A stretch of DNA of 16,144 nucleotides from Candidatus Margulisbacteria bacterium GWF2_35_9 (GCA_001783275.1 MFRH01000066.1:10033-26176); one strand, 5' to 3'; positions 3-15,550 are shown, counted from the stretch's first letter. Numbers and translations: made by a program. Notes: generated by a model not told the origin, from the letters alone.

Positions 3-260
3 ATGTTTTATAAAAAAGTTTTTAATGTAGAGGCAAGTTATAAGCAACTCATCTTTGGGGCAATTTTTGTCACTACCTCTATGGCCATATTTAATATTGT
101 ATTTGGTTATTTTATTGTTTATATCGCAAGTAGTTTTAACAAAACATATGGGACAATATCAAGTATTATTCTTCTATTGTTATGGTTTCAGATAAATGCA
201 TTGTTTATATTGATGGGATCAAATATTGTGATGCTAAATCAGAATAAGCATCTAGCATGA
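3..260 (+). CDS. C-terminal fragment of a YihY/BrkB-family integral membrane protein. The 5' end lies outside the window.
   Basis: Open frame from the window edge. The hydrophobic TM-rich C-terminus (…ISSIILLLLWFQINALFILMGSNIV…) resembles the conserved YihY/BrkB (RNase BN-like) C-terminal block. The TGA stop overlaps the next gene's ATG (gcATGAaa at 257-260). Confidence 0.5.
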   Translation: MFYKKVFNVEASYKQLIFGAIFVTTSMAIFNIVFGYFIVYIASSFNKTYGTISSIILLLLWFQINALFILMGSNIVMLNQNKHLA

Positions 261-3200
261 AAAAAATTTTGCGATCTATGGCTCTTTGGTGTTTCATAAT
301 AATCACCTTTATGTTTTTGAGTATTATTGTTGTAATGCATACTGGTTTGCCTCAGGCCTATTTGAGTAAATTTATAACCAGCAAGATCAGTGACTCATTT
401 CCTGCAAAAATAACCATAGGCTCCATTGGTGGCAATTTTTTATGGAAATTAACGCTTAATGATATTAAGGTAGATACTGACACGTCTCCTAAACAAAGAA
501 TATTATCGGTATCATCAATAGGGATTAGATATAACCTTTTTAACCTTTTTTTTAACCGCAATTCATCAGAAAATATAATTAATATTAATATTTCAAGACC
601 GGTGGTTTTGATAAATCGCGATAAGGATGGGATTTTTAACTTTTCAAGCTTAATTCCTCCAAAGAGTCAGAATCCTTCAAGTGCTGAGTTTCCTTATAAA
701 TTGAATATACAAGTCAATAAGGGTGAGATTAATTACACGGATTATGCTACTCCCTTGCAGGTGCAAATAAAAGATACACAAGTCCAGGCAGAGTATGCTC
801 ATTCAATGTTTAAGCTTTTTGGAGTTAGGGGCGAGGTCGCTGGTAATTCATTTTTCGTTTCAGGTAACATATCCCTTAAGGAAAGTTCTCCCGGGATAGA
901 CATAGAATTGGCTGCTGCCAACTTTGATCTCGCTTCGATTGATTTGGTTTATCCGCCAGCAAAAGCATACAAATTAGAGGGGATGGCTAATCTCAATATT
1001 ACAGCCAAGTCTGTTCCAGGACAATCAATCCCAATAATTATAGGTCGCATAAGTATCCCCCAAGCCAGCGTTTATTCTTATTCGATTGCCAATATCTCTT
1101 CTGCTTTTGAATTCAATAAGCAAAAAATTAGCTTCTTAATAGATAAAGGTCTTATTGAAAAAGGGACATTTAAAACAGAAGGTACTGCGGATTTCAGTGG
1201 GCCACAACCCGCTTTTAATATTAATGGGTCATTAATGGGAGTCGACTTACAAAATCTAGTTGGGAATACTAAAATTATTACAGGAAAAGCCGATGCAGTT
1301 TTTCAGGTGAAAGGGTCTTTAAAGCAAAACTCAATCGTGTTAAATATTAAAGGAAAAAACGCTAATGCGTATGGTCGCTCGATTATAAAAGCAGACCTGA
1401 AACTCGACCTGAATAGGGGAAGCGTACTACTAAGGAAGGCCAGCATCTATACGGACAAAAAGGGGGAAATACACGCAACAGCTACGCTTTTCAAAGATAA
1501 AAATTTTGTCACCGATCTTTCGCTTAGATCATTGTCTTTTGATTCCACTAAAATATATATCAGTTCCATGGGCTCAGCCCAGGGATACATCGATAGCGAT
1601 ACTAGGTTTAGTGGCAGACTAAGTGAACAGTTTTTTTCCTCTCCTTTAGAGAATATTAAGGTGACAAGTTTATCTAATATTAAAGAAATAGACTTGTCCT
1701 ATGTAATCACAAGCAATTCTGAGGCTATAGCTCAATCTATAGATTTGCTTTCTTTTAATCTTTCCTGGGATGGCAAGTTACTAAGTGCTGATAAGATTAC
1801 TCTGCGTGAAAAAGAAACACGCCTGTTTGGAAGTGGATTTTTTGCCCTCGATAAAAGCTATCTTTTTAAGTTTAAGGGTGCCCCGATTATGCTCGAAAAT
1901 TTTGACTCTATTATCGCCGGGAAGGGAGTCGCTAGTGGTCCAATAGTCATTCAAGGAGAGGTTAGCGGCATATTGCCCTCTTGGAATTTAATGCTGGATT
2001 TTGATGTTAAATCACCGAGCTATAAAGGACTCGTTATAGATAAGATTAAAGGCTCCCTATTAAAAAAGCAAAGCATGCTCGAGATTGCTAATATGGAGAT
2101 TAGCAATAATAAAGATCTTTACATTATTGGTGGGAAAATAAATTTACCTAATTATCAAAAAGTTGACCTAAATCTTGAGATCAAAAAAGGGTCAGTTAAA
2201 AATATAATAACCTTAATTCGTGATGGGGTTAAGGTCGCCGGTATATATAAAAGTGAGCACGTTTTTGATTCGCTTGCAGGTTTAGACGAAAAAGCACTAA
2301 CTCAGATACTTAGTATTAATGCCTCTCATAACATTAACGAATCCATTCCTGTTTACAATGAAAATCAAAATACCATAACACATTTAAAATCATTTATAAC
2401 CGATACTACTACTACTGCTAATGAAAAAAAGAATGATAATAAACAGTCTTTGATTGATGATTTAACAGGGGATATTAGCGGTAAACTCAGTTTTAATAAT
2501 CTAACGAGTAATGTGTTGATGGGTGCCGATATTGGAATAAAAAACTTAAAGTTAGCCGAGTCTACTTTTGGCTCAATAGAGATTAAAGCAGAATCTACAC
2601 CTGGACCTATCGTGTCTTCAGTGGTCGTTAGAGACGGGTTAGTTGGGGGCACCTCTTTTGAGGAGGTTAGTGCCCAGTTGCTTTATGATCAAGATAAAAC
2701 TTTAATAATTGAAAGCGTCACGATGAAGTTGCATGGTTATAAAAATATCAAAATTATATCTGGTATAGTTCCTTTAGCAGAGCTATTTGGCCCTGTTGAA
2801 AACCCTAAAGCGCTCAGTCTCAATATTGAGATAGCAGGAAATCAAATCGCTATTGTTTCTTTATTTACAAATGCCATTGAATCAGCAACGAATGAAGGGG
2901 CCCTCATTTTTAACATAGGAGGCAGTGTCAAAAAGCCAATATTAAAAAAGGGATTAATTTCGATAATTAATGGTCGATTGAATTTGAAAAAGGGACTATT
3001 TCCAGTAGCCAGCTTTGTAATTCCTGAAGTCGATATTAGGGTCAAAGATAACGTCGCCTCAATTAATGCTTTTTCCCTGTCCTGGGAAGGCGATAAAAAA
3101 TTAAAAAAAACAAATCTGATTTCTGCGAGAGGAAGTGTTGGACTTAGATTGGCTCCATCCAAAGAGACTACAAGCTTTGTCATTAATACTGATATCAAAA

Positions 3201-4450
3201 TGGATGACACGGATCTCTATCTGAATATCCCTGATCTCTGCATCGGAATGTTAAAGATACGAGAGACCTCTTTTAAAGGGGATTATTTTTTCTCTCTTTC
3301 CAAATCAGATAAAGGGATTGAGGCCCCCTTAAAAAATGGACTTTTACTAAAATCAAAGCTTGAGCTTTATGAAACGGTGCTTTCTATTCCTAAAATAAGT
3401 AAGAAAAGCAAGTTATTTCCATCCATATTGATTGATATAGAGTTCACAATGGGTAAAAATGTGTTGCTTTCAGGAGGCGTTGTTCCTGAGGGAGTACTAA
3501 GCGGTTTTATAAATAACATCGATATCTATTTTGATAAGAGTCCCCACCAGTTAATGATTGGAGGAAGCCTGAATCGATATTCAATTGAAGGGAATCTGTT
3601 CTTCAGGTATGGAACAATTGTTCTTCTTAATAAAGATTTTACCCTTATGTCTCAATCAGAGCAGGAAAAATATTTTGGGCGGTCAAAAGATCTAGCCAAG
3701 CCTAATTATATAGAGTTTCGTAAAGAAGATACTGCCCCTCTTTTGCATTTAAGAGCGATGACTGAAACAGATGTTGCACAAACAGAAGTTGGGAGTAGTT
3801 TGGGGCAGCGAGAAGTTTTTATTTTTGTTATTGATGGGACTGTAACGGATGTCTCAAATATGTATATATATCAGTTCCATCGACAAGGTTCAACGTTTAC
3901 TCCTGATGAAGGTAATCCGATTGTGATTGGTCGAATGAGTGTCGTTCAACTCGAAAAACTAAGTACTTATTTGTGGCCTGAGTTACTAAGTGTCAGTTTT
4001 TATCAGAATTTGGCCAATGAAGGGTTACAAGGGGAGTCCGCTGGAATTTTTATAAGGCAATTATCAGAACGAGCGGTGAACAATATAGTTTATAGACAGC
4101 TGCGTCCAGTTGAGAGAGAAATAGCTGATAGGATAGGTGTTGATGATATTCATTTTAATTATAATTTAGGAAATATTATAAGTGATGGCAGTTCAGATAA
4201 TAATAATGGAAAACAGGACCTTGTCGGAGTGGATATCAGTTCCAGATTATTTATTGACCGACTTTATGTCACTGTGCGTACGAATTTGGATCGACAGGAG
4301 AATGACAAAACTCTCAGTGTCGGTATTTCACAATACGAACTCAAGCTATCTTTGTTAGAGTGGCTTTCGTTGATTTATCATAACAAGACAATTTTTAGTG
4401 ATAATAGAAGTGAAGGAGTATTTGCTCTTGAAGCAGAGTACAATTTTTAA
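257..4450 (+). CDS. tamB: TamB/AsmA-like translocation and assembly module protein (1397 aa, N-terminal signal-anchor, DUF490-like C-terminus).
   Basis: Single long ORF. N-terminal TM anchor (ALWCFIIITFMFLSIIVVMHTG). Very large, predicted beta-rich periplasmic body. C-terminal amphipathic block ending …GVFALEAEYNF, typical of the TamB DUF490 C-terminus. Immediately followed by an Omp85 gene. ATGA overlap with the upstream ORF. Confidence 0.78.
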   Translation: MKKILRSMALWCFIIITFMFLSIIVVMHTGLPQAYLSKFITSKISDSFPAKITIGSIGGNFLWKLTLNDIKVDTDTSPKQRILSVSSIGIRYNLFNLFFNRNSSENIININISRPVVLINRDKDGIFNFSSLIPPKSQNPSSAEFPYKLNIQVNKGEINYTDYATPLQVQIKDTQVQAEYAHSMFKLFGVRGEVAGNSFFVSGNISLKESSPGIDIELAAANFDLASIDLVYPPAKAYKLEGMANLNITAKSVPGQSIPIIIGRISIPQASVYSYSIANISSAFEFNKQKISFLIDKGLIEKGTFKTEGTADFSGPQPAFNINGSLMGVDLQNLVGNTKIITGKADAVFQVKGSLKQNSIVLNIKGKNANAYGRSIIKADLKLDLNRGSVLLRKASIYTDKKGEIHATATLFKDKNFVTDLSLRSLSFDSTKIYISSMGSAQGYIDSDTRFSGRLSEQFFSSPLENIKVTSLSNIKEIDLSYVITSNSEAIAQSIDLLSFNLSWDGKLLSADKITLREKETRLFGSGFFALDKSYLFKFKGAPIMLENFDSIIAGKGVASGPIVIQGEVSGILPSWNLMLDFDVKSPSYKGLVIDKIKGSLLKKQSMLEIANMEISNNKDLYIIGGKINLPNYQKVDLNLEIKKGSVKNIITLIRDGVKVAGIYKSEHVFDSLAGLDEKALTQILSINASHNINESIPVYNENQNTITHLKSFITDTTTTANEKKNDNKQSLIDDLTGDISGKLSFNNLTSNVLMGADIGIKNLKLAESTFGSIEIKAESTPGPIVSSVVVRDGLVGGTSFEEVSAQLLYDQDKTLIIESVTMKLHGYKNIKIISGIVPLAELFGPVENPKALSLNIEIAGNQIAIVSLFTNAIESATNEGALIFNIGGSVKKPILKKGLISIINGRLNLKKGLFPVASFVIPEVDIRVKDNVASINAFSLSWEGDKKLKKTNLISARGSVGLRLAPSKETTSFVINTDIKMDDTDLYLNIPDLCIGMLKIRETSFKGDYFFSLSKSDKGIEAPLKNGLLLKSKLELYETVLSIPKISKKSKLFPSILIDIEFTMGKNVLLSGGVVPEGVLSGFINNIDIYFDKSPHQLMIGGSLNRYSIEGNLFFRYGTIVLLNKDFTLMSQSEQEKYFGRSKDLAKPNYIEFRKEDTAPLLHLRAMTETDVAQTEVGSSLGQREVFIFVIDGTVTDVSNMYIYQFHRQGSTFTPDEGNPIVIGRMSVVQLEKLSTYLWPELLSVSFYQNLANEGLQGESAGIFIRQLSERAVNNIVYRQLRPVEREIADRIGVDDIHFNYNLGNIISDGSSDNNNGKQDLVGVDISSRLFIDRLYVTVRTNLDRQENDKTLSVGISQYELKLSLLEWLSLIYHNKTIFSDNRSEGVFALEAEYNF

Positions 4451-6125
4451 ATTATTTCTACTGAGTGCCCTATTCTTTCCGGCGATATGCGTTGCAGGCT
4501 TGTCACCACTTACCGGAATATATGATAAGGTAATCGCACAAGTTAGGCTTGAAGGTAATCATTATATTACCTCAGCTTCTATCTTTGCCTCAGTTAACTT
4601 TGAAGCTTCTGCTAACACTCTCGTGAAGGTAGAACAAGTTAGAAATGATATAGAAAATATCTATTCATTAGGTTTTTTTAAGAGTGTAAACGTGGCGCTA
4701 AAATCTGAGAAGCAAGGGCAAGTATTGATCTATCAGTTAGAAGAAAATCCCTTGATTAAAAAAATTGTTATTAATGGGATATCAGCAGAAGACGATAATT
4801 TTTTTTTAGAGGCGATGAATACTCGTCCTTTAACTGTATTGTCCTATAAAGTTATTGATGAAGATATTCAGAGAATTAATAAAAAGCTTGTTGATTATGG
4901 CTATTCTCTTAATAGAGTTAGTAACGTTGAATTTTTAACTACTAGTAACATCGTGTTGCTGAGCATCAAAGAAACTAAAATTAATAACGTATTGATAAAT
5001 GGTAACCAACGATTTGCTGATAATCTCATTTCTCGGGAAATGACTGCTAGGAAAGGCAGGGTTTTTAACTTAAATGAAGTGAGAAAAGACAGAGATATCA
5101 TACTTGGTTTAGGATATTTTTCATCAGTTTCTGCTCCTCAACTAGTGCCTGTAAAAGACACGGATGATATTGATATCGTCTTTTCGGTTGTCGAAAGAAA
5201 AGTGAATTCTATTTCCCTTGCTCTTGAAGAAGGGCGCAAGTCTATTAACCTGACTTTTCGTAATCAGCTTGTTAATTATTTGAAGTGGGGAGAGTCTTTT
5301 TCTGCAAGAGCACAGTACGGAGAAGAGCAACTGTATAGCCTGCATTTTTATCTTCCGTGGACATTTAATCAGAGAGTTTCTCTTGGATTGAATAAATGGC
5401 TTCAAATTAGCAGAGAAAGTGATAAAAATGGCATAGATTACGATGTATTACGCAATGGGGCAGATATAATTTGGGGCTTGCCGCTGGCTGATGAAATTAA
5501 AATGTATGTAACTTATCGAAGTGAAAATGTGCGTGAAAATGTAGCTGTTCCGTCAATAATCTATACAAAAAATGATATAGAACTTGCTATCTCTTATGAG
5601 AATCGAGACAGCTTAGTCAAACCGACTAATGGCAGCTATGGCTATGCTCAGGTCAGTAAAGGCGGGAACTACGGTTTGTTTGACCTTGGCGGAATCAATT
5701 ACGTTCGTATGAGCGCGAGCTATATGCAATTTTATAAAGTAAGAGATAAGCAGGTATTCGCCTTTCGTAATAGCTATGGATCATTCAGTCCTGACCAAAA
5801 TAACATTAAATTGCTGGAGTTAGATCTATTTACTATCGGAGGAGCATCTACAATAAGAGGTTATACTGACTCTACATCACGCAGAGGGTTGCATATGTTG
5901 ACGGGTAATTATGAATATAGAATATATTTAATGGAGGCTCTGTCACTGGTGTTTTTCTATGATATGGGTATCGTTTATGAACAGGAAATATCTTTATCAG
6001 ACTTCATTGCGGGGCGTGGTTTTGGGTTTAGGTTTTTCACACCTTTTGGACCTATCAGGCTAGATTTAGCGTGGTCTAATAGTAGTGATTTTGTCTTGCA
6101 TTTTGGTTTATCAGAAATGTTCTAA
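4398..6125 (+). CDS. tamA: Omp85-family outer-membrane protein (TamA/BamA-like; POTRA repeats plus C-terminal 16-strand barrel).
   Basis: 575 aa. Signal-peptide-like N-terminus (KLFLLSALFFPAICVAG). Repeated POTRA-like segments. C-terminal 'bacterial surface antigen' barrel with terminal motif …RFFTPFGPIRLDLAWS…HFGLSEMF ending in Phe. Size and adjacency to tamB favour TamA over the essential BamA. The ATG at 4398 overlaps the tamB 3' end by 53 nt, so the true start may be slightly downstream. Confidence 0.78.
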   Translation: MIIEVKEYLLLKQSTIFKLFLLSALFFPAICVAGLSPLTGIYDKVIAQVRLEGNHYITSASIFASVNFEASANTLVKVEQVRNDIENIYSLGFFKSVNVALKSEKQGQVLIYQLEENPLIKKIVINGISAEDDNFFLEAMNTRPLTVLSYKVIDEDIQRINKKLVDYGYSLNRVSNVEFLTTSNIVLLSIKETKINNVLINGNQRFADNLISREMTARKGRVFNLNEVRKDRDIILGLGYFSSVSAPQLVPVKDTDDIDIVFSVVERKVNSISLALEEGRKSINLTFRNQLVNYLKWGESFSARAQYGEEQLYSLHFYLPWTFNQRVSLGLNKWLQISRESDKNGIDYDVLRNGADIIWGLPLADEIKMYVTYRSENVRENVAVPSIIYTKNDIELAISYENRDSLVKPTNGSYGYAQVSKGGNYGLFDLGGINYVRMSASYMQFYKVRDKQVFAFRNSYGSFSPDQNNIKLLELDLFTIGGASTIRGYTDSTSRRGLHMLTGNYEYRIYLMEALSLVFFYDMGIVYEQEISLSDFIAGRGFGFRFFTPFGPIRLDLAWSNSSDFVLHFGLSEMF

Positions 6126-6369
6126 CTTTACTAAAAAGTATAGATTCAGGATTATCCATTCGAATTCTATAACCATCGAGTATATCAATAGCCTTGGCGA
6201 GAGCGAGAACACTCGGTTTCCCGCTAAGGAGTATACTGATTAATAACAGGAATACGGAACTAATGATACTAAGATATATTCCCTGCTTAATTGATGAGAG
6301 TGATTCAATTTAAAAAGCAAGGTCAACTCATTTCAAATATAGAATAAAATATACTAAAGGAGGATCGTG

Positions 6370-6846
6370 ATGGAAATAATCAAGTCTGATCATAATTTTG
6401 CAGCCGTGTGGATTGACCATAAGAAAGCAGTTATCTCTTTTCTTGATGATAAGGGGCATCGTGAGCAAGTTTTAACTATTGAGTCAAACGTAAGCGCTCA
6501 TATAAATTTCAAAACTGGACGGGGATATAGTAGCAACCAACATCTGCAAATGGTTAAACCAGCAATTAGTCAGGAGCGCAAACATCAAAGCCAGTTGAAG
6601 CGTTACTTCCAAGAAATAATACAAACGCTTAAAGGCATTGGTAGCTTCATCGTTATTGGTCCTGGGGAGGCCAAAATAGAATTTCAAAAAGAAATTCACA
6701 AAAACAAAGAACTTTTTCCACTTCTAAAAGAAGTTCTGCCCCAAGATAACATAACTGAAACCCAACTTGTTGCCTATGCCAAAAAATTCCATGTGCCAGT
6801 TGGATCACCTTTTACTGTGTCTAAGCCTAAACTGATTAGAAGGTAG
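6370..6846 (+). CDS. Hypothetical 158-aa protein, possibly Host_attach / bacterial eRF1-like (baeRF) fold.
   Basis: Strong SD AAAGGAGGA (6356-6364) lies 6 nt before ATG 6370 (GTG 6367 is the alternative). Sequence …AAVWIDHKKAVISFLDD…GIGSFIVIGPGEAKIEFQKEI… is reminiscent of the small Host_attach family. Ends TAG. Its 3' end overlaps the HDAC-like remnant on the opposite strand. Confidence 0.55.
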   Translation: MEIIKSDHNFAAVWIDHKKAVISFLDDKGHREQVLTIESNVSAHINFKTGRGYSSNQHLQMVKPAISQERKHQSQLKRYFQEIIQTLKGIGSFIVIGPGEAKIEFQKEIHKNKELFPLLKEVLPQDNITETQLVAYAKKFHVPVGSPFTVSKPKLIRR

Positions 6847-7396
6847 AGGGGTTTAAATTTATTGATTTTGTGAAGAGCTTTGATAAGGGTTTCTTTGTAT
6901 TCTTCATAAGTAATGTGCTCTGGCATAGGATAATTAACATTAAAGCCTTGGCCTATCCCCTCGCCTATTTCCTCTGTAAAACCAGAAAAATAAGGATAAG
7001 CAACGCGGGGATTTCCGTGGATGGACAAACAGAGAAGGTTTGGGTTTTAACTTTTATACAGAGATTGGTTTTTTCCAGTTCAGCCATGATGGAAGCAACT
7101 CTTACAGGAGATTCGACATAACCCCGCTCCTTAACGTGATGAATATAATGCTTCTCATTAAATATCAAGGCAATTTTTTGCCTGTCTTTTATCAAAAAGT
7201 CTCGGGATGGGATAGGTTTTTTAATATATATTTTTTCTCTGCATTTTACTGGGTCATCCTTAAAGGAATTTAGAACCATGCGCATATATTTGGGTGAACA
7301 CAAATCGGAGTATTTGCGTCTAAGGATAGCTTTAACAATTTTTACGGTTGATTCCAAGTGAAGGTTATTTTTATCAGCTTCCAAACTATCAAACAT
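6774..7396 (-). pseudogene. Histone-deacetylase/acetylpolyamine-amidohydrolase (HDAC-fold) gene remnant. Two overlapping reading frames, with the catalytic core deleted.
   Basis: The upstream ORF (7396..6965) contains the N-terminal HDAC block …IALIFNEKHYIHHVKERGYVESPVRVASIMAELEKT (the HPE-x-P-x-R region). The downstream ORF (7028..6774), in another frame, carries YPYFSGFTEEIGEGIGQGFNVNYPMPEHITYEEY (FPGTG…G-x-G…N-x-PL motif) and …ISLGLDTVKGDPTGTWNF (G-x-D…DPLG block). About 150 aa between these blocks are missing, including the HH and D-x-H zinc/catalytic residues. The 3' end is overrun by the convergent gene at 6370-6846. Confidence 0.6.
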
Positions 7397-7402
7397 CAGC
7401 TA

Positions 7403-7912
7403 AGGAGGATTATCATCCCCTTCATTTAAGGGTGTTTCATATTTGGTATTCACGATAGAGGTCACTCCAAAACGTTCATAAAACTTGAGGCGACTGATAT
7501 TTTCCTTGAGGATATTGGGGGTCCTTACAAAGAGTAGAATCATCTGGCAGACATTCAAAAAACAAGCCGATACTTTTTAGCTTTTTCGCTTCTGAACGTG
7601 CTTTTTCATATAGAATGCTACCTATCTGCCGGAAAAACCTTTTTTGGTGGCGATGTAATCCAGAAAGCTGAAATTCAAGTCTGGAGCATGAAACAAAAGC
7701 GCAAAGGCATCCACGCTTCCTTTATAATTATCAGCTACCAGCAAAATAGACCTGAATTTGTATTTTAAGGGATTATGAAGTTGTTCAGTTAATTGTTGTA
7801 TTTTTTCTTCTTTAACACTAGGGAATTGAGCCCTGATAATATCCTGAACCTGAATAATTACTTTTTGATTAGCAGGATACAGAGCATCATGAATACGTCT
7901 TATTCTTAACAT
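7403..7912 (-). pseudogene. GNAT-family acetyltransferase paralogue interrupted by two in-frame stop codons (TAG at 7624..7622, TAA at 7579..7577).
   Basis: ORF 7912..7625 (96 aa) ends …LDYIATKKGFSGR*. The same frame continues VAFYMKKHVQKRKS*KVSACFLNVCQMILLFVRTPNILKENISRLKFYERFGVTSI…, ending at TAG 7402..7400. The tail carries the GNAT C-terminal 'FYE+FGF'-like motif. The total is about 170 codons, a normal GNAT size. It starts directly after the upstream GNAT's TAA (TAAATG). TAA and TAG are bona fide stops elsewhere in the window. Confidence 0.55.
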
Positions 7913-8413
7913 TTACACGACTTTTACAAAGATGACTTTGTCGTCATTGGGCCCGTAGAAATCTTTTAACTGGGCTTCCACTATATAGTCGCTTTTTTGA
8001 TAGAATTTTCGGGTGGGTATGTATAGGTCTTTAGATGATGTTTCCACATAGATACGACCTCCCCCAATTTCCTTGATAATCATCTCGGTTCGTTTCATAA
8101 GCTCTTTGCCTATTCCGCTCTTTTGATATGTATTCTCTACAGCAATCCAGTATAGGTCGTAACTTGAAGCAGTACCCATAATCGGCCCATAACACACATA
8201 TCCAATAACTTCGCCTTCATTTTCAGCAAAAAGGAAATAGTAGCCACTTTCTTTACCTTTCTGGAGACGTTCATCAATAAGTTCAACCGCAATTTCCTGT
8301 TCTTCCTCATTAAAGAAATCCGTAGATTTAATTATCCTACGAATAGCTTCTGAATCAGTACCCAACGTTTCCTGCCGAAAGTTTAAAGAGATATTCGTTA
8401 GTTTATTTTTCAT
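7913..8413 (-). CDS. GNAT-family N-acetyltransferase (166 aa).
   Basis: Motif A …YQKSGIGKELMKRTEMIIKEIGGGRIYVETS… and C-terminal …KFYQKSDYIVEAQ… . ATG 8413-8411 overlaps the TGA of the upstream ATP-grasp gene (ATGA). Confidence 0.85.
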   Translation of the reverse strand: MKNKLTNISLNFRQETLGTDSEAIRRIIKSTDFFNEEEQEIAVELIDERLQKGKESGYYFLFAENEGEVIGYVCYGPIMGTASSYDLYWIAVENTYQKSGIGKELMKRTEMIIKEIGGGRIYVETSSKDLYIPTRKFYQKSDYIVEAQLKDFYGPNDDKVIFVKVV

Positions 8414-9402
8414 GTAGGTATCCTTATAGCTTTTATTATAATTTCAATCATTTCTTTGTAAGAAAGACCGCTTTCTTTTGCTGCTGCGACAAATCCACTA
8501 TCTTCAGCTATTCCTGGATTTGCATTAACTTCAAGTATCCATGGACGGTTGTGTTTATCCACCCGGAAATCTACTCTAGCATATGCGTTAAGACCAAAGA
8601 GTTTCCAGCAATTTAATGAAATCTGTTTAAGTTCATCCAACAACTTTTTATCACTGTCTTTGAAGGTAAATGTCCGACTGGTATTTTTATATTCAAAGGT
8701 GGTTTCCTCCCACTTAGCGGCATAGCTTACTATTTTTGCTTTGTCTTTTGGAAAATTGAAAAACTGCATTTCGGCAGGTGGTAAAACAGTTGGATTAGAA
8801 TCGGGACCAATAATGGAAATATTAAATTCCCGACCATCTATATATTCTTCAGCAAAAAAATGGTCATGCAGTCTTTCGTTCCTGTCCAGAATGAAATCGT
8901 TTAAGGCTTGTCCGCTATTAAAAGTTTTTACTGAAGAATCATCAATATTTATAGAGGCATCCTCTACTATAGATTTTACAATTACACGCTTGTTTTCTAA
9001 GGGAACAGCAGATGAAGAAGTCTTAGGATCATACCATTCTGCTGTTGGCAGGATTGCCTGTCTTAACACCGTTTTGCTTAATACCTTGTCTGTTGTTAAA
9101 TAAATGGCCTCCGCAGAACATCCACTGTATGGAATTGCGTAAAAATCTAGTAGGGCTGGGACAAGATGTAAAAAACGTCCCTCCATTTCAACCAGATTAA
9201 ATACAAACTCAGCGGTTTTTAGCTCAGGAAGAATGGACGTCAAATTTTCAGGAGATACTTGTTTTATAAGTGGATCATAGCCCAAGGCTATAATGGCCTC
9301 GTTAACATTCTTTATCTGAACAAGCGTATCCAACTGATCCTCTGCATTAGGATCAGTTATCTGCTGATGCAAAAGCACCACATTTTTTAAACGTGTAGTC
9401 AT
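8410..9402 (-). CDS. D-alanine-D-alanine-ligase-like ATP-grasp amide ligase (about 330 aa).
   Basis: C-terminal …YARVDFRVDKHNRPWILEVNANPGIAEDSGF… matches the Ddl ATP-grasp Mg/ATP site. The N-terminal Ddl-like Rossmann domain starts at MTTRLKNVVLLHQQ. I place the start at ATG 9402-9400, which forms an ATGA overlap with the upstream stop. The longest-ORF start at 9486 would instead give an 88-nt overlap. Confidence 0.82.
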   Translation of the reverse strand: MTTRLKNVVLLHQQITDPNAEDQLDTLVQIKNVNEAIIALGYDPLIKQVSPENLTSILPELKTAEFVFNLVEMEGRFLHLVPALLDFYAIPYSGCSAEAIYLTTDKVLSKTVLRQAILPTAEWYDPKTSSSAVPLENKRVIVKSIVEDASINIDDSSVKTFNSGQALNDFILDRNERLHDHFFAEEYIDGREFNISIIGPDSNPTVLPPAEMQFFNFPKDKAKIVSYAAKWEETTFEYKNTSRTFTFKDSDKKLLDELKQISLNCWKLFGLNAYARVDFRVDKHNRPWILEVNANPGIAEDSGFVAAAKESGLSYKEMIEIIIKAIRIPT

Positions 9403-11729
9403 TGCATGACCGGAGTAAGTCTTTTTACAGCTGAATCCATAATCATTTGGATCAGTTTTGTATAAGGGATTCCCATATGTCTGCAAAGAATTGGCAGGTC
9501 CGAATCATTCGGGTTTAGTCCAGCAAGTGTATTAACCTCAATAAAGTTAGGAACTCCATTTTTATCCAGACGCATATCAATTCTCCCACCATCTCTACAT
9601 CCCAAAGCTTTCCATGCTTTGATAGCGATATCTGCACTTTTTTGGGCTTCAATATCTGTTGCTATTGTATAGTGAATCATTTCCTCATAATTTTGCTTAT
9701 TAGCGTAAGAATATATCTCTTGTTCCGCATTTTTTGAAATGAATACTTCTAAGACTCCAAGAGCTTTCGCTTCAGATCCTGTACCAACTATTCCAATAGT
9801 GAATTCTCTTCCTGGCAGAAATTCTTCAACAAGAACTGCTTGTTGAAATTTAACCAACAAGTCTTTGACCGTTTGATGCAAAGTTTCTTTATCCTTTATT
9901 TTTGAAGTGGCAGTAACTCCTTTACTGCTACCTTCCGCCACTGGTTTAGCGAATAACGGGAATTCCAGATTAATGTTTTCTATATCCTCTACATTTTCCA
10001 CTACATGAAAAGCAGCGGTAGGAATTCCTTTATCTTTTAACACATGCTTTACAAGGCCTTTATGCTGGGAAAGTGAATGAATGGTTGAAGATGAAAAGGT
10101 AGAAGGAATGCCATACGCATCTAATAGGCTGGGCACTTGAGACTCCCGGGATATTCCATGTAGACCTTCGGCAATATTAAACACCAAATCCCATTTTTTC
10201 CCATTGTGCAATAGGTGAACCAAATTATGAATATTACCGATTCGATCTGTTTCGTAGCCTAATTCCTTCAAACTATTTTCAATGGCTTCAATGGTTTCTA
10301 TTTTATCAAATTCAGCGATATCCTCATTGCTGTATCCCATATTTTTATAATCTTCTTTCAAGTCATAACAGATGCCAACTTTGAGTTTTTTGCTTTTCTG
10401 CTCAGAAACAGGGTCATAGTAAGAATATATCTTGTCCTGATAGTTTTTCAACATAACCTGATTGCCATTCCGTCCAATATAATACTCTGGTAATATCGGG
10501 ATTTTTCCTCCTCCACCAGGAGCGTCTATTACATAATGAGGAATAGCATAACCAGAGGTGTGGCCTCTTAATCCCTTGATGATTTCCAGTCCTTTTTCTA
10601 CACTTGTTCGGAAGTGAGAAGATCCTTCAATAAGATCGCACTGATACAAATAGTAGGGGCGGACTCGAATCTTGAGTAGTTCATGGAACAGCTTCTTCAT
10701 AATGGGGACACTGTCATTTATACCTTTTAGTAAAACCGTCTGACTACCCAAGGGAATGCCAGCATCGGCAAGCCGATTGCAGGCCTCTCTTGTTTCTTCT
10801 GTTATTTCATCTGGATGAGTGAAATGCAGACTTAAATACAGTGGCTTGTACTTCTGCAGAATCTTTAGCAATTTTTTGGTTATTCTTTGTGGCAAGACAG
10901 CTGGTATTTTGGAGCCAATCCGAATAATTTCAAGATGTTTTATTTCGCTTAATCCTGAAAGCAACCAGTCTAGTTGCTTATCTGAAAGCGTCAAAGGATC
11001 TCCACCGGAAATAATAACATCACGTATTTCGGTATGGGCCTGAATATAATCAATAGAATCCTGCCAATCAGCAAAACCGGTTTTTTGTTTTTTAGTTACA
11101 TGACCTACTACCCGAGAGCGGGTGCAGTATCGGCAATTGACAGAACAAAAACTGGTTGCCAGAAAAAGGGCCCGGTCTGGGTATCGATGTATAATACCAT
11201 TTACGGGTCGAGTAGTGTCTTCTCCTAAGGGATCAAAGGATTCTTCCTGTGTAATTTTCAATTCATCTATAACTGGAATAACCGAACGGCGTATAGATTG
11301 TTTTCCATTTCTTTCATCCAGAAGGCTTGCATAATAGGGAGTTATTGAGATCGGAAGCTTCCCAAGTTTGCCTCTTTTTTCAAGTATCTCCCGTTCAGTA
11401 TTGCTTAGTGTAACAAATGTTTCCAGTTGTTTTAATGTTCGAATCCTGTTACGCAACTGCCACTTCCAGTTACCCCAGTTAATTTTTGTCGATCCAGGAA
11501 AGTGTTTATGATAAAACTTTGCGGATTTATTAGAAATTGGGAAACCATGGTTTTTGTTTGGGATAACAGAAGGAAGGGACATAAGATTTTTTTCATAAAT
11601 CGGCAATCTCAGACCGTGTTTTGGTAAAATAGCAATTATAGTGCCAAGCGGAGGCTCTCCTTCATCGGAATTTTCCTCAGAAATGGAACCTATATCAACC
11701 AGATTTAGGTTATTATTTTTTGTTATCAT
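9399..11729 (-). CDS. kamA: Fusion protein: lysine 2,3-aminomutase (radical-SAM KamA/AblA, residues about 70-440) fused to a C-terminal D-Ala-D-Ala-ligase-like ATP-grasp domain (about 450-776).
   Basis: N-terminal part is block-by-block colinear with Clostridium subterminale LAM: WGNWKWQLRNRI, ITPYYASLLD, HRYPDRALFLATSFCSVNCRYCTRSR (CxxxCxxC), IISGGDPLTLSD, RIGSKIPAVLPQRIT, RVRPYYLYQCDL, GLRGHTSGYAIPHYVIDAPGGGGK. C-terminal part is colinear with Ddl: WDLVFNIAEGLHG, PLFAKPVAEGSSKGV, VLVEEFLPGREFTIGIVG, GCRDGGRIDMRLDKNGVPNFIEVNTLAGL. Ends TGA at 9401-9399. Confidence 0.9.
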   Translation of the reverse strand: MITKNNNLNLVDIGSISEENSDEGEPPLGTIIAILPKHGLRLPIYEKNLMSLPSVIPNKNHGFPISNKSAKFYHKHFPGSTKINWGNWKWQLRNRIRTLKQLETFVTLSNTEREILEKRGKLGKLPISITPYYASLLDERNGKQSIRRSVIPVIDELKITQEESFDPLGEDTTRPVNGIIHRYPDRALFLATSFCSVNCRYCTRSRVVGHVTKKQKTGFADWQDSIDYIQAHTEIRDVIISGGDPLTLSDKQLDWLLSGLSEIKHLEIIRIGSKIPAVLPQRITKKLLKILQKYKPLYLSLHFTHPDEITEETREACNRLADAGIPLGSQTVLLKGINDSVPIMKKLFHELLKIRVRPYYLYQCDLIEGSSHFRTSVEKGLEIIKGLRGHTSGYAIPHYVIDAPGGGGKIPILPEYYIGRNGNQVMLKNYQDKIYSYYDPVSEQKSKKLKVGICYDLKEDYKNMGYSNEDIAEFDKIETIEAIENSLKELGYETDRIGNIHNLVHLLHNGKKWDLVFNIAEGLHGISRESQVPSLLDAYGIPSTFSSSTIHSLSQHKGLVKHVLKDKGIPTAAFHVVENVEDIENINLEFPLFAKPVAEGSSKGVTATSKIKDKETLHQTVKDLLVKFQQAVLVEEFLPGREFTIGIVGTGSEAKALGVLEVFISKNAEQEIYSYANKQNYEEMIHYTIATDIEAQKSADIAIKAWKALGCRDGGRIDMRLDKNGVPNFIEVNTLAGLNPNDSDLPILCRHMGIPYTKLIQMIMDSAVKRLTPVMQ

Positions 11730-11926
11730 TTTTTATTTCAGCCCTCATTTTTAAGTATTATTTCTGTCTATTTAAAACTCATTACATAAATATCATCATA
11801 CAAGTATTTTTAAAAAAAATAAATGGCCTATATTGAAGTTTTTTAAGTAGTCTTTTTATAGATTTTTTTGACCTCTTAAAACCAAACGCCTCTTCCTATG
11901 GCAACACGGTTATTTTTGAACTAGTC
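11730..11926 (-). promoter_or_regulatory. Upstream leader/promoter region of the kamA-fusion operon.
   Basis: 197-nt AT-rich gap between the SPFH gene end and the kamA-fusion ATG, same strand. GAGG lies about 12 nt upstream of the ATG. No specific promoter elements could be pinned. Confidence 0.25.
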
Positions 11927-12796
11927 TTAACTTTTTTTTATAGGAACTACACCTGCTAAATCACCGATCACATTAACTAGGTCAGAAGTTGATGGCACTA
12001 TAATTTTGGCATTATTTTCTAATGATTTTTGAGTTGTTTCCAAGCGTTTGAGTAATTGTGCATTACCAACAAAATATTTATTTGCAGCTTCGTTAATTGT
12101 CCTAATGGCTTCAGCTTCTCCTTCAGCTTCCAATATTCTGGCTTGTTTAATCCCTTCAGCTTTCTTAATGGATGATCGTTTTTCACCATCGGCCGCTGTT
12201 TCTGCCGCAGTTGCATAGTCAACGGCAGCAAGTTTTTCGTTTTCTGCCTTCACTATTTTATTCATCGTTTCTTGTACATCTTTTGGAGGATCAATTTGTT
12301 TAAGCTCCGCACGAACAATTTCCATACCCCATTTGGACGTTTCTTTAACAAGAATTTTTATGAGTTCCCCATTAATCCTGCCTCGCTCGCTATTAGCGGA
12401 TTTCAATGTCATGGTTCCAATAATATTACGCAGAGTTGTTCGGGCCAAGTTAACGATCTGATTATTAACATCAAAGACGTTATAAACACAATTTTTAACA
12501 GACTCTTCATCACTTTTAATTTTAAAATAAATCTGAGCATCCACTAAAGCATTAAGATTGTCATTTGTAATAATTTCTTGGGGTTCAGCATCTATCATTT
12601 GTTCAGTAATATTAATTATATAGATTAAGTCGATAAACGGAATAATCCAATTAAATCCGGGGTTTGCAAAACGTTGATATTTACCAAGTCTCTCGATTAA
12701 ACCTCTATTGGTAGGTCTTACAATCCTTATCCCCAGAACAAAAATAGCAATAACAACTATAAAAGCTGAAAAAAAAGTCATATAAATGTAATCCAT
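11927..12796 (-). CDS. SPFH/band-7 (stomatin/prohibitin/HflKC-like) membrane protein.
   Basis: N-terminal TM helix (FFSAFIVVIAIFVLGI) followed by the SPFH core (IVRPTNRGLIERLGKYQRFANPGFNWIIPFID…) and a C-terminal Ala/Glu-rich coiled coil (…EAEGEAEAIRTINEAA…). Confidence 0.85.
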   Translation of the reverse strand: MDYIYMTFFSAFIVVIAIFVLGIRIVRPTNRGLIERLGKYQRFANPGFNWIIPFIDLIYIINITEQMIDAEPQEIITNDNLNALVDAQIYFKIKSDEESVKNCVYNVFDVNNQIVNLARTTLRNIIGTMTLKSANSERGRINGELIKILVKETSKWGMEIVRAELKQIDPPKDVQETMNKIVKAENEKLAAVDYATAAETAADGEKRSSIKKAEGIKQARILEAEGEAEAIRTINEAANKYFVGNAQLLKRLETTQKSLENNAKIIVPSTSDLVNVIGDLAGVVPIKKS

Positions 12797-12991
12797 ATAA
12801 AAACCCTCCTTAATATTTTATTAACTATTTCCAAGCATAACCCATGAACTTCATAGAAGCAAACTAATAAGCTTTTTCAATAAATCAGGAATATTTCTTC
12901 CCTAAATCGTAATTAAGGGATATCATTCTCTTTACTTATAACCGTCTTTGGAAAAATATAAGTATAAAATATAAAATAAATGAGGTATAAC
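12797..12991. promoter_or_regulatory. Divergent intergenic region. Presumed promoters for the SPFH gene (minus) and the zinc-ribbon gene (plus).
   Basis: 195-nt AT-rich spacer between divergently oriented starts. Several -10-like hexamers (TATAAA/TAAAAT around 12962-12976). No confident -35 assignment. Confidence 0.3.
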
Positions 12992-13360
12992 ATGGGATTT
13001 TTCGATAAGGGAAAAAAAGATAATAATGAATTTCGATCAGAAGGAACAAAACGTAGATCCTCAGGTGGCGGTAGAGACTCATATGAAGAAAAGGAGTTAA
13101 CAACTGTCACATGCGATACCTGTGGCAAAAGTTGCACGGTACCCTTTAGACCAACAGCTGGCAAACCAGTTTATTGTAATGATTGTTTTAAGAAAAATGA
13201 TTCGGGTTCACGAAGTGACAGATCCGCCTATCCAAAACGTCGTACAGGTTCAGATTCTCGTGGTAGAAGTTCAGACAGTGGTTCTTCAAGTCGTGAATTA
13301 GCTCAGATTAATGCCAAGTTAGATCGTATTCTAGAGATGCTAGACCAAGACGCAGAATAA
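12992..13360 (+). CDS. Small C4 zinc-ribbon protein with a basic RS/SR-rich tail and a C-terminal coiled segment.
   Basis: CDTCGKSCTVPFRPTAGKPVYCNDCF (CxxC-x17-CxxC). This matches a widespread small zinc-ribbon family (C-x2-C-G-K…VPF-P…+PVYC-x2-C). GAGG lies 6 nt upstream of ATG 12992 (longest-ORF ATG is at 12980). Followed by a strong intrinsic terminator. Confidence 0.7.
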   Translation: MGFFDKGKKDNNEFRSEGTKRRSSGGGRDSYEEKELTTVTCDTCGKSCTVPFRPTAGKPVYCNDCFKKNDSGSRSDRSAYPKRRTGSDSRGRSSDSGSSSRELAQINAKLDRILEMLDQDAE

Positions 13361-14260: not shown

Positions 14261-15550
14261 ATGAGGCTCTTAAACTTTCAGGTTAATTACTATAAATGCA
14301 TCAGTGATTCCGGTATTATCAACATTAACGATATTGCGTGTTTCATTGGCAACAACAATAGTGGAAAAACAGCTTTATTTGAAGCTCTTTACAAATTGAA
14401 CCCCGCTTTTTCGAAAAACAAGTTTTTTGAGTCTGATGATTTTCCAAAAGACAAGATTGAATACCAAAACTCTAAAACAAGAGTAATTACTTGTACCTTT
14501 AAACTAACTGATGCAGAATTAATATTTATTAATAAAAAATTTGGAGACCATTGCATAAATTCCGATATTATTACTGTATCAAGAGACTATGCAAATAATC
14601 TCCATTGGGATTTTGAAATTAACGAAGAAAGTTATGTTAAACATCTTATTGATAAAAGAAATTTAACAAAATTATTTGAGAAACATTTAAGTAAGATTAA
14701 TTCAGTGGAATCCTGCTATAGTGTTGCGAAGGAATTGCCTCCTCTATCAACCAGCCTCGTTTCGTTTATTACCCAACTTGAATTATTGAAAATTCGTTCA
14801 ATGAAGGAAGAAATTATTGAAGGATACTTTCAACACTGGATACCCAAATTCCTATATATTTCTGAAGTTCATAAGCTACCGGGTTATTTTTCATTAAAAC
14901 AAATAACCAAAGCCCTCTCTTCATCAGATGATGTTAAAGAAGCTGCAAAAACAGCTTTAGCTTTCTTAAAACTACTGGAAGTAGATATTAACAGCTTATT
15001 AACCGAACCAGATAATAATAAACTACTTGAAACAATGAATAACTTATCAAGTAATCTGTCATCACACCTTTCTTCCATTTTACAAATTTTTGAACATCTA
15101 CAAATTGATATTGATATTCAATCCCTAGTTGCCCAAAATGTTCGTATTGATTCCACAATTTATATCAACATAACCAATAAAGAAACTAAGATCACTTTAC
15201 CTATTGGAAAACATGGAAAATCACTAGTTTATTTTTTATCGTTCCTTTGCTCCTTATCAATAATAAAAGATAAAACCGAACCATATATAATACTTATTGA
15301 TACACCCTCAGATCATTTAAGCATCGATGCTCAATCCGAATTTTGTAAATATATTCATGATGTATTAACACAAAAACACCAAATTCTATATACAACACAT
15401 TCTCCATTTATGATTAATACGAAAGCAAAAGACAATCTTTATTCTGTCTTTATCAAACCAAACTTCGGGACTGTCGTATCTCAAGACGTAAACTCAGATT
15501 CACTGACAAAGAAGATTTCAGATATCGCAGACAAATTCTATTCGAAATAA
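14261..15550 (+). CDS. OLD/AAA_15-type ABC ATPase (429 aa) with a degenerate Walker B. Putative orphan defence/abortive-infection ATPase.
   Basis: N-terminus MRLLNFQVNYYKCI…ININDIACFIGNNNSGKTALFEAL matches the OLD-family start (MkIkslkIkNF…) and has the P-loop GxNxSGKT. It has a long helical insert. The C-terminal …PYIILIDTPSDHLSIDAQ…QILYTTHSPFMI gives Walker B hhhhD plus the TTHSP H-loop. The canonical DEPE…LHP is DTPS…LSI here. No TOPRIM or nuclease domain is present, and no partner gene lies downstream. Confidence 0.72.
   Translation: MRLLNFQVNYYKCISDSGIININDIACFIGNNNSGKTALFEALYKLNPAFSKNKFFESDDFPKDKIEYQNSKTRVITCTFKLTDAELIFINKKFGDHCINSDIITVSRDYANNLHWDFEINEESYVKHLIDKRNLTKLFEKHLSKINSVESCYSVAKELPPLSTSLVSFITQLELLKIRSMKEEIIEGYFQHWIPKFLYISEVHKLPGYFSLKQITKALSSSDDVKEAAKTALAFLKLLEVDINSLLTEPDNNKLLETMNNLSSNLSSHLSSILQIFEHLQIDIDIQSLVAQNVRIDSTIYINITNKETKITLPIGKHGKSLVYFLSFLCSLSIIKDKTEPYIILIDTPSDHLSIDAQSEFCKYIHDVLTQKHQILYTTHSPFMINTKAKDNLYSVFIKPNFGTVVSQDVNSDSLTKKISDIADKFYSK

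Follow-up and report, generated by a model that had tools for sequence, protein, structure and literature searches.

If a lysine 2,3-aminomutase (LAM) and a ligase resembling D-Ala-D-Ala ligase (Ddl) are encoded as a single polypeptide, is the fusion real, and what would the ligase do with the β-lysine that the aminomutase makes? This question is raised by a stretch of 16,144 nucleotides from Candidatus Margulisbacteria bacterium GWF2_35_9 (GCA_001783275.1, MFRH01000066.1:10033–26176), which we call the window and in whose numbering positions are given unless a related locus is named. On its minus strand, positions 9399–11729 hold a gene (GenBank OGI07524.1, annotated as "hypothetical protein") that encodes an N-terminal extension, a LAM core, a linker, and a Ddl-like ATP-grasp domain, here called grasp1. 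We consider it fairly probable that this gene naturally unites the two leading enzymes of an operon in which β-lysine is made, ligated twice, and reversibly N-acetylated to give a small peptide or oligomer. The four- to five-gene operon, rather than the fusion, is the real unit: its first two genes are fused here, and most lineages have the same genes in the same order, unfused.

β-Lysine is known as an osmolyte precursor, as a modifier of EF-P, and as a building block of antibiotics (through nonribosomal peptide synthetases (NRPS) or enzymes like lysyl-tRNA synthetase, LysRS). The locus points to a fourth route, consumption by Ddl-derived ATP-grasp ligases. Each of the domains belongs to a known family and fused entries are already public under generic names, but the operon, which is widespread among anaerobes and present in many anaerobic and candidate phyla, appears unstudied, and we found no description of it or of any LAM/ATP-grasp system in the open-access literature searched. 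A single polypeptide that could both make and ligate a β-amino acid is also relevant to biocatalytic β-peptide synthesis, and the existence of a cultured carrier, the sulfate reducer Desulfoferrobacter suflitae, renders the question testable.

Reality and Origin of the Fusion

The interval 9399–11729 (minus strand) contains a sole open reading frame (ORF) in our ORF listing, which starts with ATG and runs for 776 codons to its stop with zero internal stops. In its product, Pfam places Radical_SAM at residues 192–340, LAM_C at residues 384–467, and Dala_Dala_lig_C (PF07478) at residues 564–764 (1.1e-32), in agreement with the preliminary description of this DNA, which had given a one-polypeptide LAM/ligase fusion with the correct coordinates. 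An AlphaFold2 model of the fusion, built on 25 orthologs, has a mean predicted local distance difference test (pLDDT) score of 76.8 and a predicted template modeling (pTM) score of 0.54, such that its inter-domain confidence is low and the per-domain confidence alone is usable. Foldseek searches with this model return the Clostridium subterminale LAM structure 2A5H as the top match, as well as Ddl structures, the latter with TM(target) values of 0.7–0.8.

Since most relatives keep separate genes, one might suspect that two genes have been joined artefactually, by misassembly or by a frameshift. However, the identical 776-residue protein is found on scaffold_1040 of ERZ28564009 and on k141_387277 of ERZ27254744, two separately recorded assemblies that may or may not share reads, and co-linear, full-length fused orthologs from other samples and taxa form ~28 clusters (at 90% identity) that are 47–74% identical to the window protein, those at 67–74% identity being ungapped at the junction. 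One fused ortholog (WP_258928636.1) is carried by D. suflitae. The same ORF in two assemblies and the co-linear orthologs rule out an artefact of either kind.

The interdomain linker was placed at approximately residues 444–449 (10383–10400, minus strand) by comparison with the unfused neighboring genes of our closest unfused relative (locus L049, protein P0030; L and P numbers are our own handles), and by its variable length in the ortholog alignment, being 8 residues long in the window protein and up to ~70 residues long in orthologs. A fusion point had been expected at about 10400–10450; it does exist, albeit at the former position rather than the latter. In L049, KamA ends with "...KYYDPIEDKSL" and is followed by a spacer of 139 nucleotides and by a grasp1 that starts with "MDNKKQIESTLTVGLTYDLK", while the window protein reads "...SYYDPVSEQKSKKLKVGICYDLK" across the junction. 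The match between this junction and the termini of the unfused L049 genes shows the fusion to be an end-to-end join of neighboring genes, from the natural C-terminus of KamA to the natural N-terminus of grasp1.

Among the 150 best matches in a representative library at 50% identity, six clusters are LAM-grasp fusions and four are fusions in the reverse order, grasp-LAM. In a neighbor-joining tree of the LAM cores, fused members are dispersed among unfused ones, which points to recurrent fusion, and the LAM core of the window shares 64–67% identity with unfused proteins and at most ~58% with other fused groups. The fusion is a modest evolutionary event that arose several times, by loss of a stop codon and a spacer between neighbors, and the fusions provide a "Rosetta stone" argument for a pathway.

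The Aminomutase Domain

The radical S-adenosylmethionine (SAM)/pyridoxal 5′-phosphate (PLP) aminomutase core occupies residues 77–443 (10401–11501, minus strand) and matches 2A5H at 1.7e-122 in a phmmer search against the Protein Data Bank (PDB), and the Foldseek alignment, which spans 370 residues, gives an identity of ~47–48%. It scores 358 bits with the KamA subfamily hidden Markov model (HMM) of NCBIfam, TIGR00238, and so passes the cut-off of 199. Its best equivalog is AblA (TIGR03820, 490 bits), the cut-off of which (525) is narrowly missed, and the EpmB equivalog (TIGR03821) is not reached, at 250 bits against a cut-off of 369.

Alignment to 2A5H bears out the earlier statement that the hallmark blocks of LAM are intact, including the CxxxCxxC motif and the PLP-lysine region. 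The [4Fe-4S] cluster cysteines C195, C199, and C202 (11124–11147, minus strand) are C125, C129, and C132 of 2A5H, R204, after them, corresponds to R134, which binds the carboxylate; D365 and D402 correspond to the ligands of the lysine ε-ammonium group, D293 and D330; and K409 (codon at 10503–10505, minus strand), in the sequence APGGGGK, corresponds to the PLP-binding K337. All of these residues are invariant in the 25 fused orthologs. As the lysine-binding residues are both conserved and invariant, the substrate is likely to be free L-lysine, rather than glutamate or arginine, and we infer from this residue-level support that the LAM domain turns L-lysine into β-lysine. In glutamate 2,3-aminomutase, the two lysine-binding Asp residues are replaced by Lys and Asn. 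Here, both Asp residues are kept, and the HMMs for glutamate and arginine 2,3-aminomutases give lower scores that are far under their cut-offs, ruling out either identity.

The Zn site of the clostridial enzyme is lost from the fusion, where C268 is replaced by S340 and the C-terminal segment with the remaining ligands (which we take to be C375, C377, and C380 of 2A5H) is absent. All of 118 relatives (30 fused and 88 unfused) lack a CxCxxC beyond the GGGGK loop, and the intersubunit Zn site characterizes the clostridial enzyme rather than the KamA family in general. With C. subterminale KamA and methanogen AblA, the fusion shares the CxxxCxxC motif, the PLP lysine, the three lysine-binding residues (one Arg and two Asp), and the fold; it differs in its ~68 extra N-terminal residues with an EEPP motif, the lost Zn site, and a C-terminus that runs into an ATP-grasp domain.

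The Fused ATP-Grasp Domain

Grasp1 comprises residues 450–776 (9402–10382, minus strand), and ~30 Ddl structures in the PDB match approximately residues 500–770 with phmmer E-values of 1e-21 to 1e-11. Residues were mapped onto Escherichia coli DdlB, using a reference sequence confirmed to be identical to 1IOV/2DLN. The ATP-, Mg-, and catalysis-related residues K557, K595, E635, E642, K678, R716, D718, E731, and N733 are kept (K97, K144, E180, E187, K215, R255, D257, E270, and N272 of DdlB, respectively), as are S150 (S601) and S281 (S743). The D-alanine pocket, in contrast, is altered, with H63 replaced by E521, Y216 by Q679, and L282 by D744, which lies in an invariant S-D-L motif. The equivalent of E15 is ambiguous, being either E469 (in the MAFFT alignment) or the near-invariant E473 of an A-E-F-D motif. 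The residue set for ATP-grasp chemistry is thus present, and that for D-Ala recognition (the E15-S150-Y216 triad, H63, and S281/L282) is not found as a set. The designation "D-Ala-D-Ala-ligase-like" in the preliminary description consequently holds for fold and chemistry, and fails for specificity, as the counterparts of H63 and L282 are now acidic; of the catalytic residues it had named, two (K215 and S150) persist, Y216 has been replaced, and E15 cannot be assigned to a single position.

The resemblance to DdlB (2DLN/1IOV) and the Van ligases extends to the three-domain ATP-grasp fold and the residues for acyl-phosphate formation followed by amine attack. Grasp1 differs from these enzymes in its low identity to them (~20–25%), in the replacement of the "GEDG" loop by "xxRE(S/A)Q", and in being linked to LAM rather than to mur or fts genes.

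Stand-alone proteins of 325–355 residues are 55–60% identical to grasp1 over 98% of its length, and, among the candidates scored, more than 7,500 stand-alone grasp1 homologs have E ≤ 1e-20. Many of these are named "D-alanine--D-alanine ligase", a label that databases often give to stand-alone homologs and that could be taken to mean that the C-terminal half of the fusion is a genuine D-Ala-D-Ala ligase. However, this half misses the Ddl HMMs (156.7 against a cut-off of 243 for NF002378 and 126.9 against 245.65 for TIGR01205), all equivalogs are far under their cut-offs, and, with Y216, H63, and L282 all replaced, a true Ddl is ruled out. We consider this possibility, like that of an artefact, to be essentially excluded, and the database label is probably wrong for the homologs that lie in the operon. 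Grasp1 has the appearance of an active ligase with acyl-phosphate chemistry that is not a D-Ala-D-Ala ligase, and its added acidic residues (E521 and D744) would suit a cationic diamino substrate.

Operon Organization and Conservation

The fusion is followed by a second Ddl-like ATP-grasp ligase of 330 residues, grasp2 (8410–9402, minus strand; GenBank OGI07523.1, with Pfam support), the ATG of which, at 9402, overlaps the TGA of the fusion (ATGA), suggesting translational coupling. Grasp2 is ~25–28% identical to grasp1 and, like it, keeps the catalytic and Mg/ATP residues, with A, W, and G at the positions of S150, Y216, and L282, respectively. Its orthologs come after the fusion or after grasp1 in seven related loci (L031, L034, L040, L043, L045, L046, and L049).

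The end of grasp2 is overlapped by the start of a GNAT N-acetyltransferase of 166 residues (7913–8413, minus strand; identified by Pfam), a gene whose position is kept in L031, L034, L046, and L049. Its best structural relative is 2R7H (6e-40), named "putative D-alanine N-acetyltransferase" by its depositors, and in the NCBIfam scan it matches RimI-like and other GNAT models. Its sequence is 100% identical to that of a protein recorded for Candidatus Margulisbacteria bacterium GWF2_35_9.

A fifth gene, with a GNAT-like N-terminal domain and an HDAC domain of the acetylpolyamine-amidohydrolase type, has decayed in the window (6777–7912, minus strand), as seen in tblastn comparison with its intact 579-residue ortholog (L034, 13819–15558). 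Residues 1–295 of the latter align to 7912–7031 with three in-frame stops, residues 430–532 align to 7094–6777 in a different frame (a frameshift), and approximately residues 296–429 (~134 codons) and the C-terminus are gone. Identical lesions are present in both recorded assemblies, and the gene is thus probably a true pseudogene. In L034, the intact HDAC domain is closest to the acetylpolyamine amidohydrolases 9GKZ, 6PHR, and 3Q9B (1e-59 to 1e-67), which it matches over its own full length, and the fifth gene differs from these in its extra GNAT-like domain and in its operon link to LAM and the ligases. The deacetylase, judged from these matches, resembles small-molecule amidohydrolases, and not protein deacetylases. 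Antisense over the 3′ remnant of this gene lies an ORF of 159 residues (6367–6846, plus strand) that has a faint pelota match only, and for which the public assemblies call a gene of 158 residues.

Gene for gene, the window genes at 11729–7913 and the remnant down to 6777 match L034, L049, L031, L046, L043, and L045. The fusion, grasp2, GNAT, and deacetylase genes are all present in Margulisbacteria relatives (L034–36), and the first three of these in Desulfoferrobacter/Syntrophobacteraceae (L031–33), while in L040 the fusion and grasp2 are followed by a single HDAC+GNAT polypeptide. KamA, grasp1, grasp2, and GNAT are encoded separately in L049 (likewise among the Margulisbacteria relatives) and in L046. 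In Ignavibacteriales (L045), KamA, grasp1, and grasp2 are present and no GNAT is called, and in Bacteroidales (L043/44) the same three genes are followed by a 263-residue protein without a Pfam match, which occupies the GNAT slot, and by a Peptidase_C1. The signature of the operon, a KamA with the EEPP motif together with a paralogous pair of Ddl-like ligases (S-D-L marking grasp1, and W in place of Y216 marking grasp2), is found in the window. Near the fusion operon of L040, we also note a pyrrolysine insertion element (PYLIS, of the mttB type; 18071–18170, plus strand) in trimethylamine methyltransferase genes.

Of 29 loci from Omnitrophota and from metagenome-assembled genomes (MAGs) labeled Planctomycetales, most have one or two grasp1-like genes directly upstream of kamA, often with overlapping or nearly abutting starts and stops. 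Minimal systems of LAM and one ligase occur in group-1 Omnitrophota (L001–L008) and in Eubacteriales (P0032). The recurrent neighbors in the Omnitrophota loci are, by sequence reading, housekeeping genes (purH, folC, mnmE, pabB/C, nrd, and dcd), and thus give no clue to the product.

The same modules are joined in several further ways. Fusions of grasp1 to grasp2 form 14 clusters at 50% identity (within P0369–P0503), HDAC and GNAT are fused in L040 as described above, LAM is fused to GNAT in P0380 and P0417 and to Peptidase_S66 (of the LD-carboxypeptidase family) in P0486, and P0035 is a Peptidase_S51-grasp-LAM fusion. An intein with a LAGLIDADG domain interrupts one LAM in this group (among P0368, P0380, P0417, and P0486). 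In a Eubacteriales MAG (L038), a reverse-order grasp-LAM fusion adjoins the end of a dap/lysA operon (dapA-dapB-dapF-aminotransferase-lysA-DUF4855) that is preceded by a lysine riboswitch (11310–11484, minus strand, in that locus). In the window and seven related loci, Rfam at its gathering thresholds gave no riboswitch or other RNA upstream of the fusion, as did a permissive scan of 11600–12000 in the window, and a promoter/terminator scan of 6000–13000 returned sites no more numerous than in shuffled sequence.

The presence of a GNAT in an operon with an aminomutase whose best equivalog is AblA (490 bits) raises the question of whether this is a plain osmolyte pathway of the AblA/AblB type, which makes N-ε-acetyl-β-lysine, and β-lysine osmolyte genes are indeed known in bacteria (PMC9337991, PMC3543383). 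The operon has in common with that pathway an aminomutase followed by a GNAT, with β-lysine as the building block. It differs, however, in having two ligases between the two, a GNAT that is RimI-like and 166 residues long, and, often, an added amidohydrolase. Furthermore, the AblA cut-off is missed, the GNAT is without an AblB-family match, no riboswitch, for Na+ or otherwise, was found upstream, and many carriers are groundwater organisms. The osmolyte pathway also leaves the ligases unexplained; their fusion to each other, and to LAM at either end, makes them part of the pathway. We consider a plain osmolyte pathway to be very unlikely.

A second question is whether the ligases place β-lysine on a macromolecule, either on a side chain or the terminus of a protein (such as EF-P, independently of EpmA) or on a peptidoglycan precursor. 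There are ATP-grasp enzymes that act on proteins or on murein precursors (RimK and D-aspartate ligase), the Peptidase_S66 fusion in P0486 and the housekeeping synteny in Omnitrophota would be compatible with such a role, and, in the two closest relatives, genes for EarP and EF-P lie 1–2.5 kb upstream of the fusion (L030, 7372–9042; L034, 5855–7531). EarP, however, marks EF-P of the arginine-type, rhamnosylated kind, EF-P is parted from the fusion by an opposite-strand tRNA gene (together with an AbiEii insertion in L034), and the linkage is absent from the window and from the loci of other phyla. With the tRNA gene in between and the absence elsewhere, we judge the linkage to be coincidental. 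The LAM core also scores 250 against the EpmB cut-off of 369, and the deacetylase is akin to small-molecule amidohydrolases rather than to protein deacetylases. The EpmB/EpmA system is similar in that a KamA-family aminomutase feeds β-lysine to a dedicated ligase; EpmA, however, is a LysRS paralog that acts via an adenylate, not an ATP-grasp enzyme, and there is no EpmA-like gene in the window. A macromolecular acceptor therefore seems improbable to us, if less so than a plain osmolyte.

Proposed Pathway and Product

Taking these observations together, we propose the following pathway. In the first step, the radical-SAM/PLP domain would bind free L-lysine (R204 contacting the carboxylate, D365 and D402 the ε-ammonium group, and K409 carrying PLP), and migration of the α-amino group would give β-lysine. 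The fused grasp1 may then form an acyl-phosphate on a carboxylate and couple it to an amine, with β-lysine as one of its two substrates, after which the translationally coupled grasp2 would attach a further unit. The assignment of two ligations with β-lysine as a substrate draws on repeated fusion and on gene order. GNAT could N-acetylate a free amine of the product, and the amidohydrolase, where present (its gene being decayed in the present genome), could strip the acetyl group for turnover or activation. The end product would be a small, N-acetylated, β-lysine-containing peptide or oligomer. Small-peptide hydrolases of the S51 and C1 families recur with the ligase modules and S66 is fused to LAM, which is consistent with a metabolite that undergoes both synthesis and breakdown.

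The logic of N-acetylation plus an ATP-grasp peptide bond has precedents. In the bacterial Ngg system (N-acetylglutaminylglutamine amide) and in mammalian NAT8L with RIMKLA/B (N-acetylaspartylglutamate, NAAG), a GNAT and an ATP-grasp enzyme make N-acetyl peptides, using ligases of the RimK/cyanophycin-synthetase branch that act on Glu, Gln, or Asp. The proposed pathway would likewise lead to a small capped peptide, but with Ddl-like ligases, and with a β-amino acid substrate that is made in situ.

The preliminary description had read the fusion as substrate channeling, with β-lysine passing straight into ATP-grasp ligation. The coupling of the two activities has strong backing from the gene order and from the repeated fusion in both domain orders. 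Channeling through facing active sites, in contrast, finds no support: the linker varies from ~8 to ~70 residues, both domain orders exist, most lineages are unfused, and the pTM of the model is 0.54, all of which argues against a fixed channel. We suggest instead that the fusion would provide co-localization and a 1:1 stoichiometry on a flexible tether.

The most interesting alternative concerns the product itself. The ligases could polymerize β-lysine into an ε-linked oligo- or poly-β-lysine, a polycation that would act as a polyamine-like cation or as a nitrogen store, with the GNAT and amidohydrolase masking and unmasking its charge. Such a product would resemble the β-lysine chain of streptothricin or ε-poly-lysine, but would be made by ATP-grasp enzymes. 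Ddl couples two copies of one substrate, such that self-ligation would be the simplest line of descent, and the minimal systems (L001–L008 and P0032) consist of LAM and one ligase. New invariant acidic residues are found in both substrate subsites (E521 and D744), the deacetylase belongs with those of acetylpolyamines, the S51 domain in P0035 is of the cyanophycinase family, and the Omnitrophota loci, which by our reading lie amid housekeeping genes, come from low-salt groundwater. Against this, the presence of two ligases as distinct as grasp1 and grasp2 suggests two different bonds rather than one repeated, and neither a conserved exporter nor a primer-related gene was found nearby. We therefore hold a homo-oligomeric polycation to be rather unlikely, although a better candidate than a macromolecular acceptor. 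In its fullest form, which we put forward with the same reserve, the operon would be a ribosome- and NRPS-independent route to an oligo(β-lysine) polycation with a GNAT/amidohydrolase charge switch, serving as a polyamine surrogate or nitrogen store and held together as a complex by EEPP docking. If true, this route would span Margulisbacteria, Omnitrophota, Desulfobacterota, Bacteroidota, and Ignavibacteriota.

Our preference for a small, N-acetylated peptide or oligomer made by two ligations has to be set against several points that lower our confidence in it. The substrate that is activated, the partner amine or carboxylate, and the type of product (dipeptide, tripeptide, or polymer) are guesses, and we found no biochemical data on any member in the searchable open-access literature. 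The deacetylase is missing or decayed in several carriers, including the present genome, and is hence not essential, and the GNAT falls outside the AblB type, with no match to the AblB model in the NCBIfam scan. The residue assignments in the N-terminal segment of Ddl (E15) and in the ω-loop (K215/Y216) come from uncertain parts of the alignment, the neighbor-joining tree of LAM cores is without support values, and the genomic contexts inspected by hand number approximately a dozen.

The N-Terminal Extension

Residues 1–76 (11502–11729, minus strand) precede the LAM core. Residue 9 of 2A5H aligns with residue 77 of the window protein, giving an extension of ~68 residues, which is in line with the ~65 residues, absent from clostridial LAM and without a recognizable domain, that had been described, and Pfam gives no match in this segment. 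It is not, however, specific to the fusion, since unfused KamA relatives carry an N-terminal extension and the EEPP motif too. The extension varies in both sequence and length among relatives, and is predicted to be disordered, with AlphaFold2 pLDDT values of <50 at residues 1–61. Within it lies the acidic motif S21-D-E-G-E-P-P-L-G29 (11643–11669, minus strand), the family consensus of which, E-E-x-E-P-P-S/G, sits at approximately residues 11–25 and occurs in 97 of the 109 relatives compared, fused or unfused, where shuffles would lead one to expect ~10. One might speculate that the EEPP motif docks partner enzymes or a reductant.

Other Features of the Window

Toward the start of the window, at 257–6125 on the plus strand, a DUF748 protein of 1397 residues (taken as TamB-like) overlaps the start of a protein of 575 residues that the public gene calls assign to POTRA/Omp85; we read the two as forming, in this Margulisbacteria genome, a TAM-like pair for outer-membrane assembly. 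At 12980–13360 (plus strand), a protein of 126 residues has a treble-clef zinc finger (zf_Tbcl_2) flanked on both sides by Arg/Ser/Gly-rich tails. Finally, an AAA_15 ATPase of 429 residues (14261–15550, plus strand) aligns with the entire profile of AriA, the PARIS defense ATPase (6e-22). It has no visible AriB/TOPRIM neighbor, and the next gene, on the other strand, encodes a response regulator.

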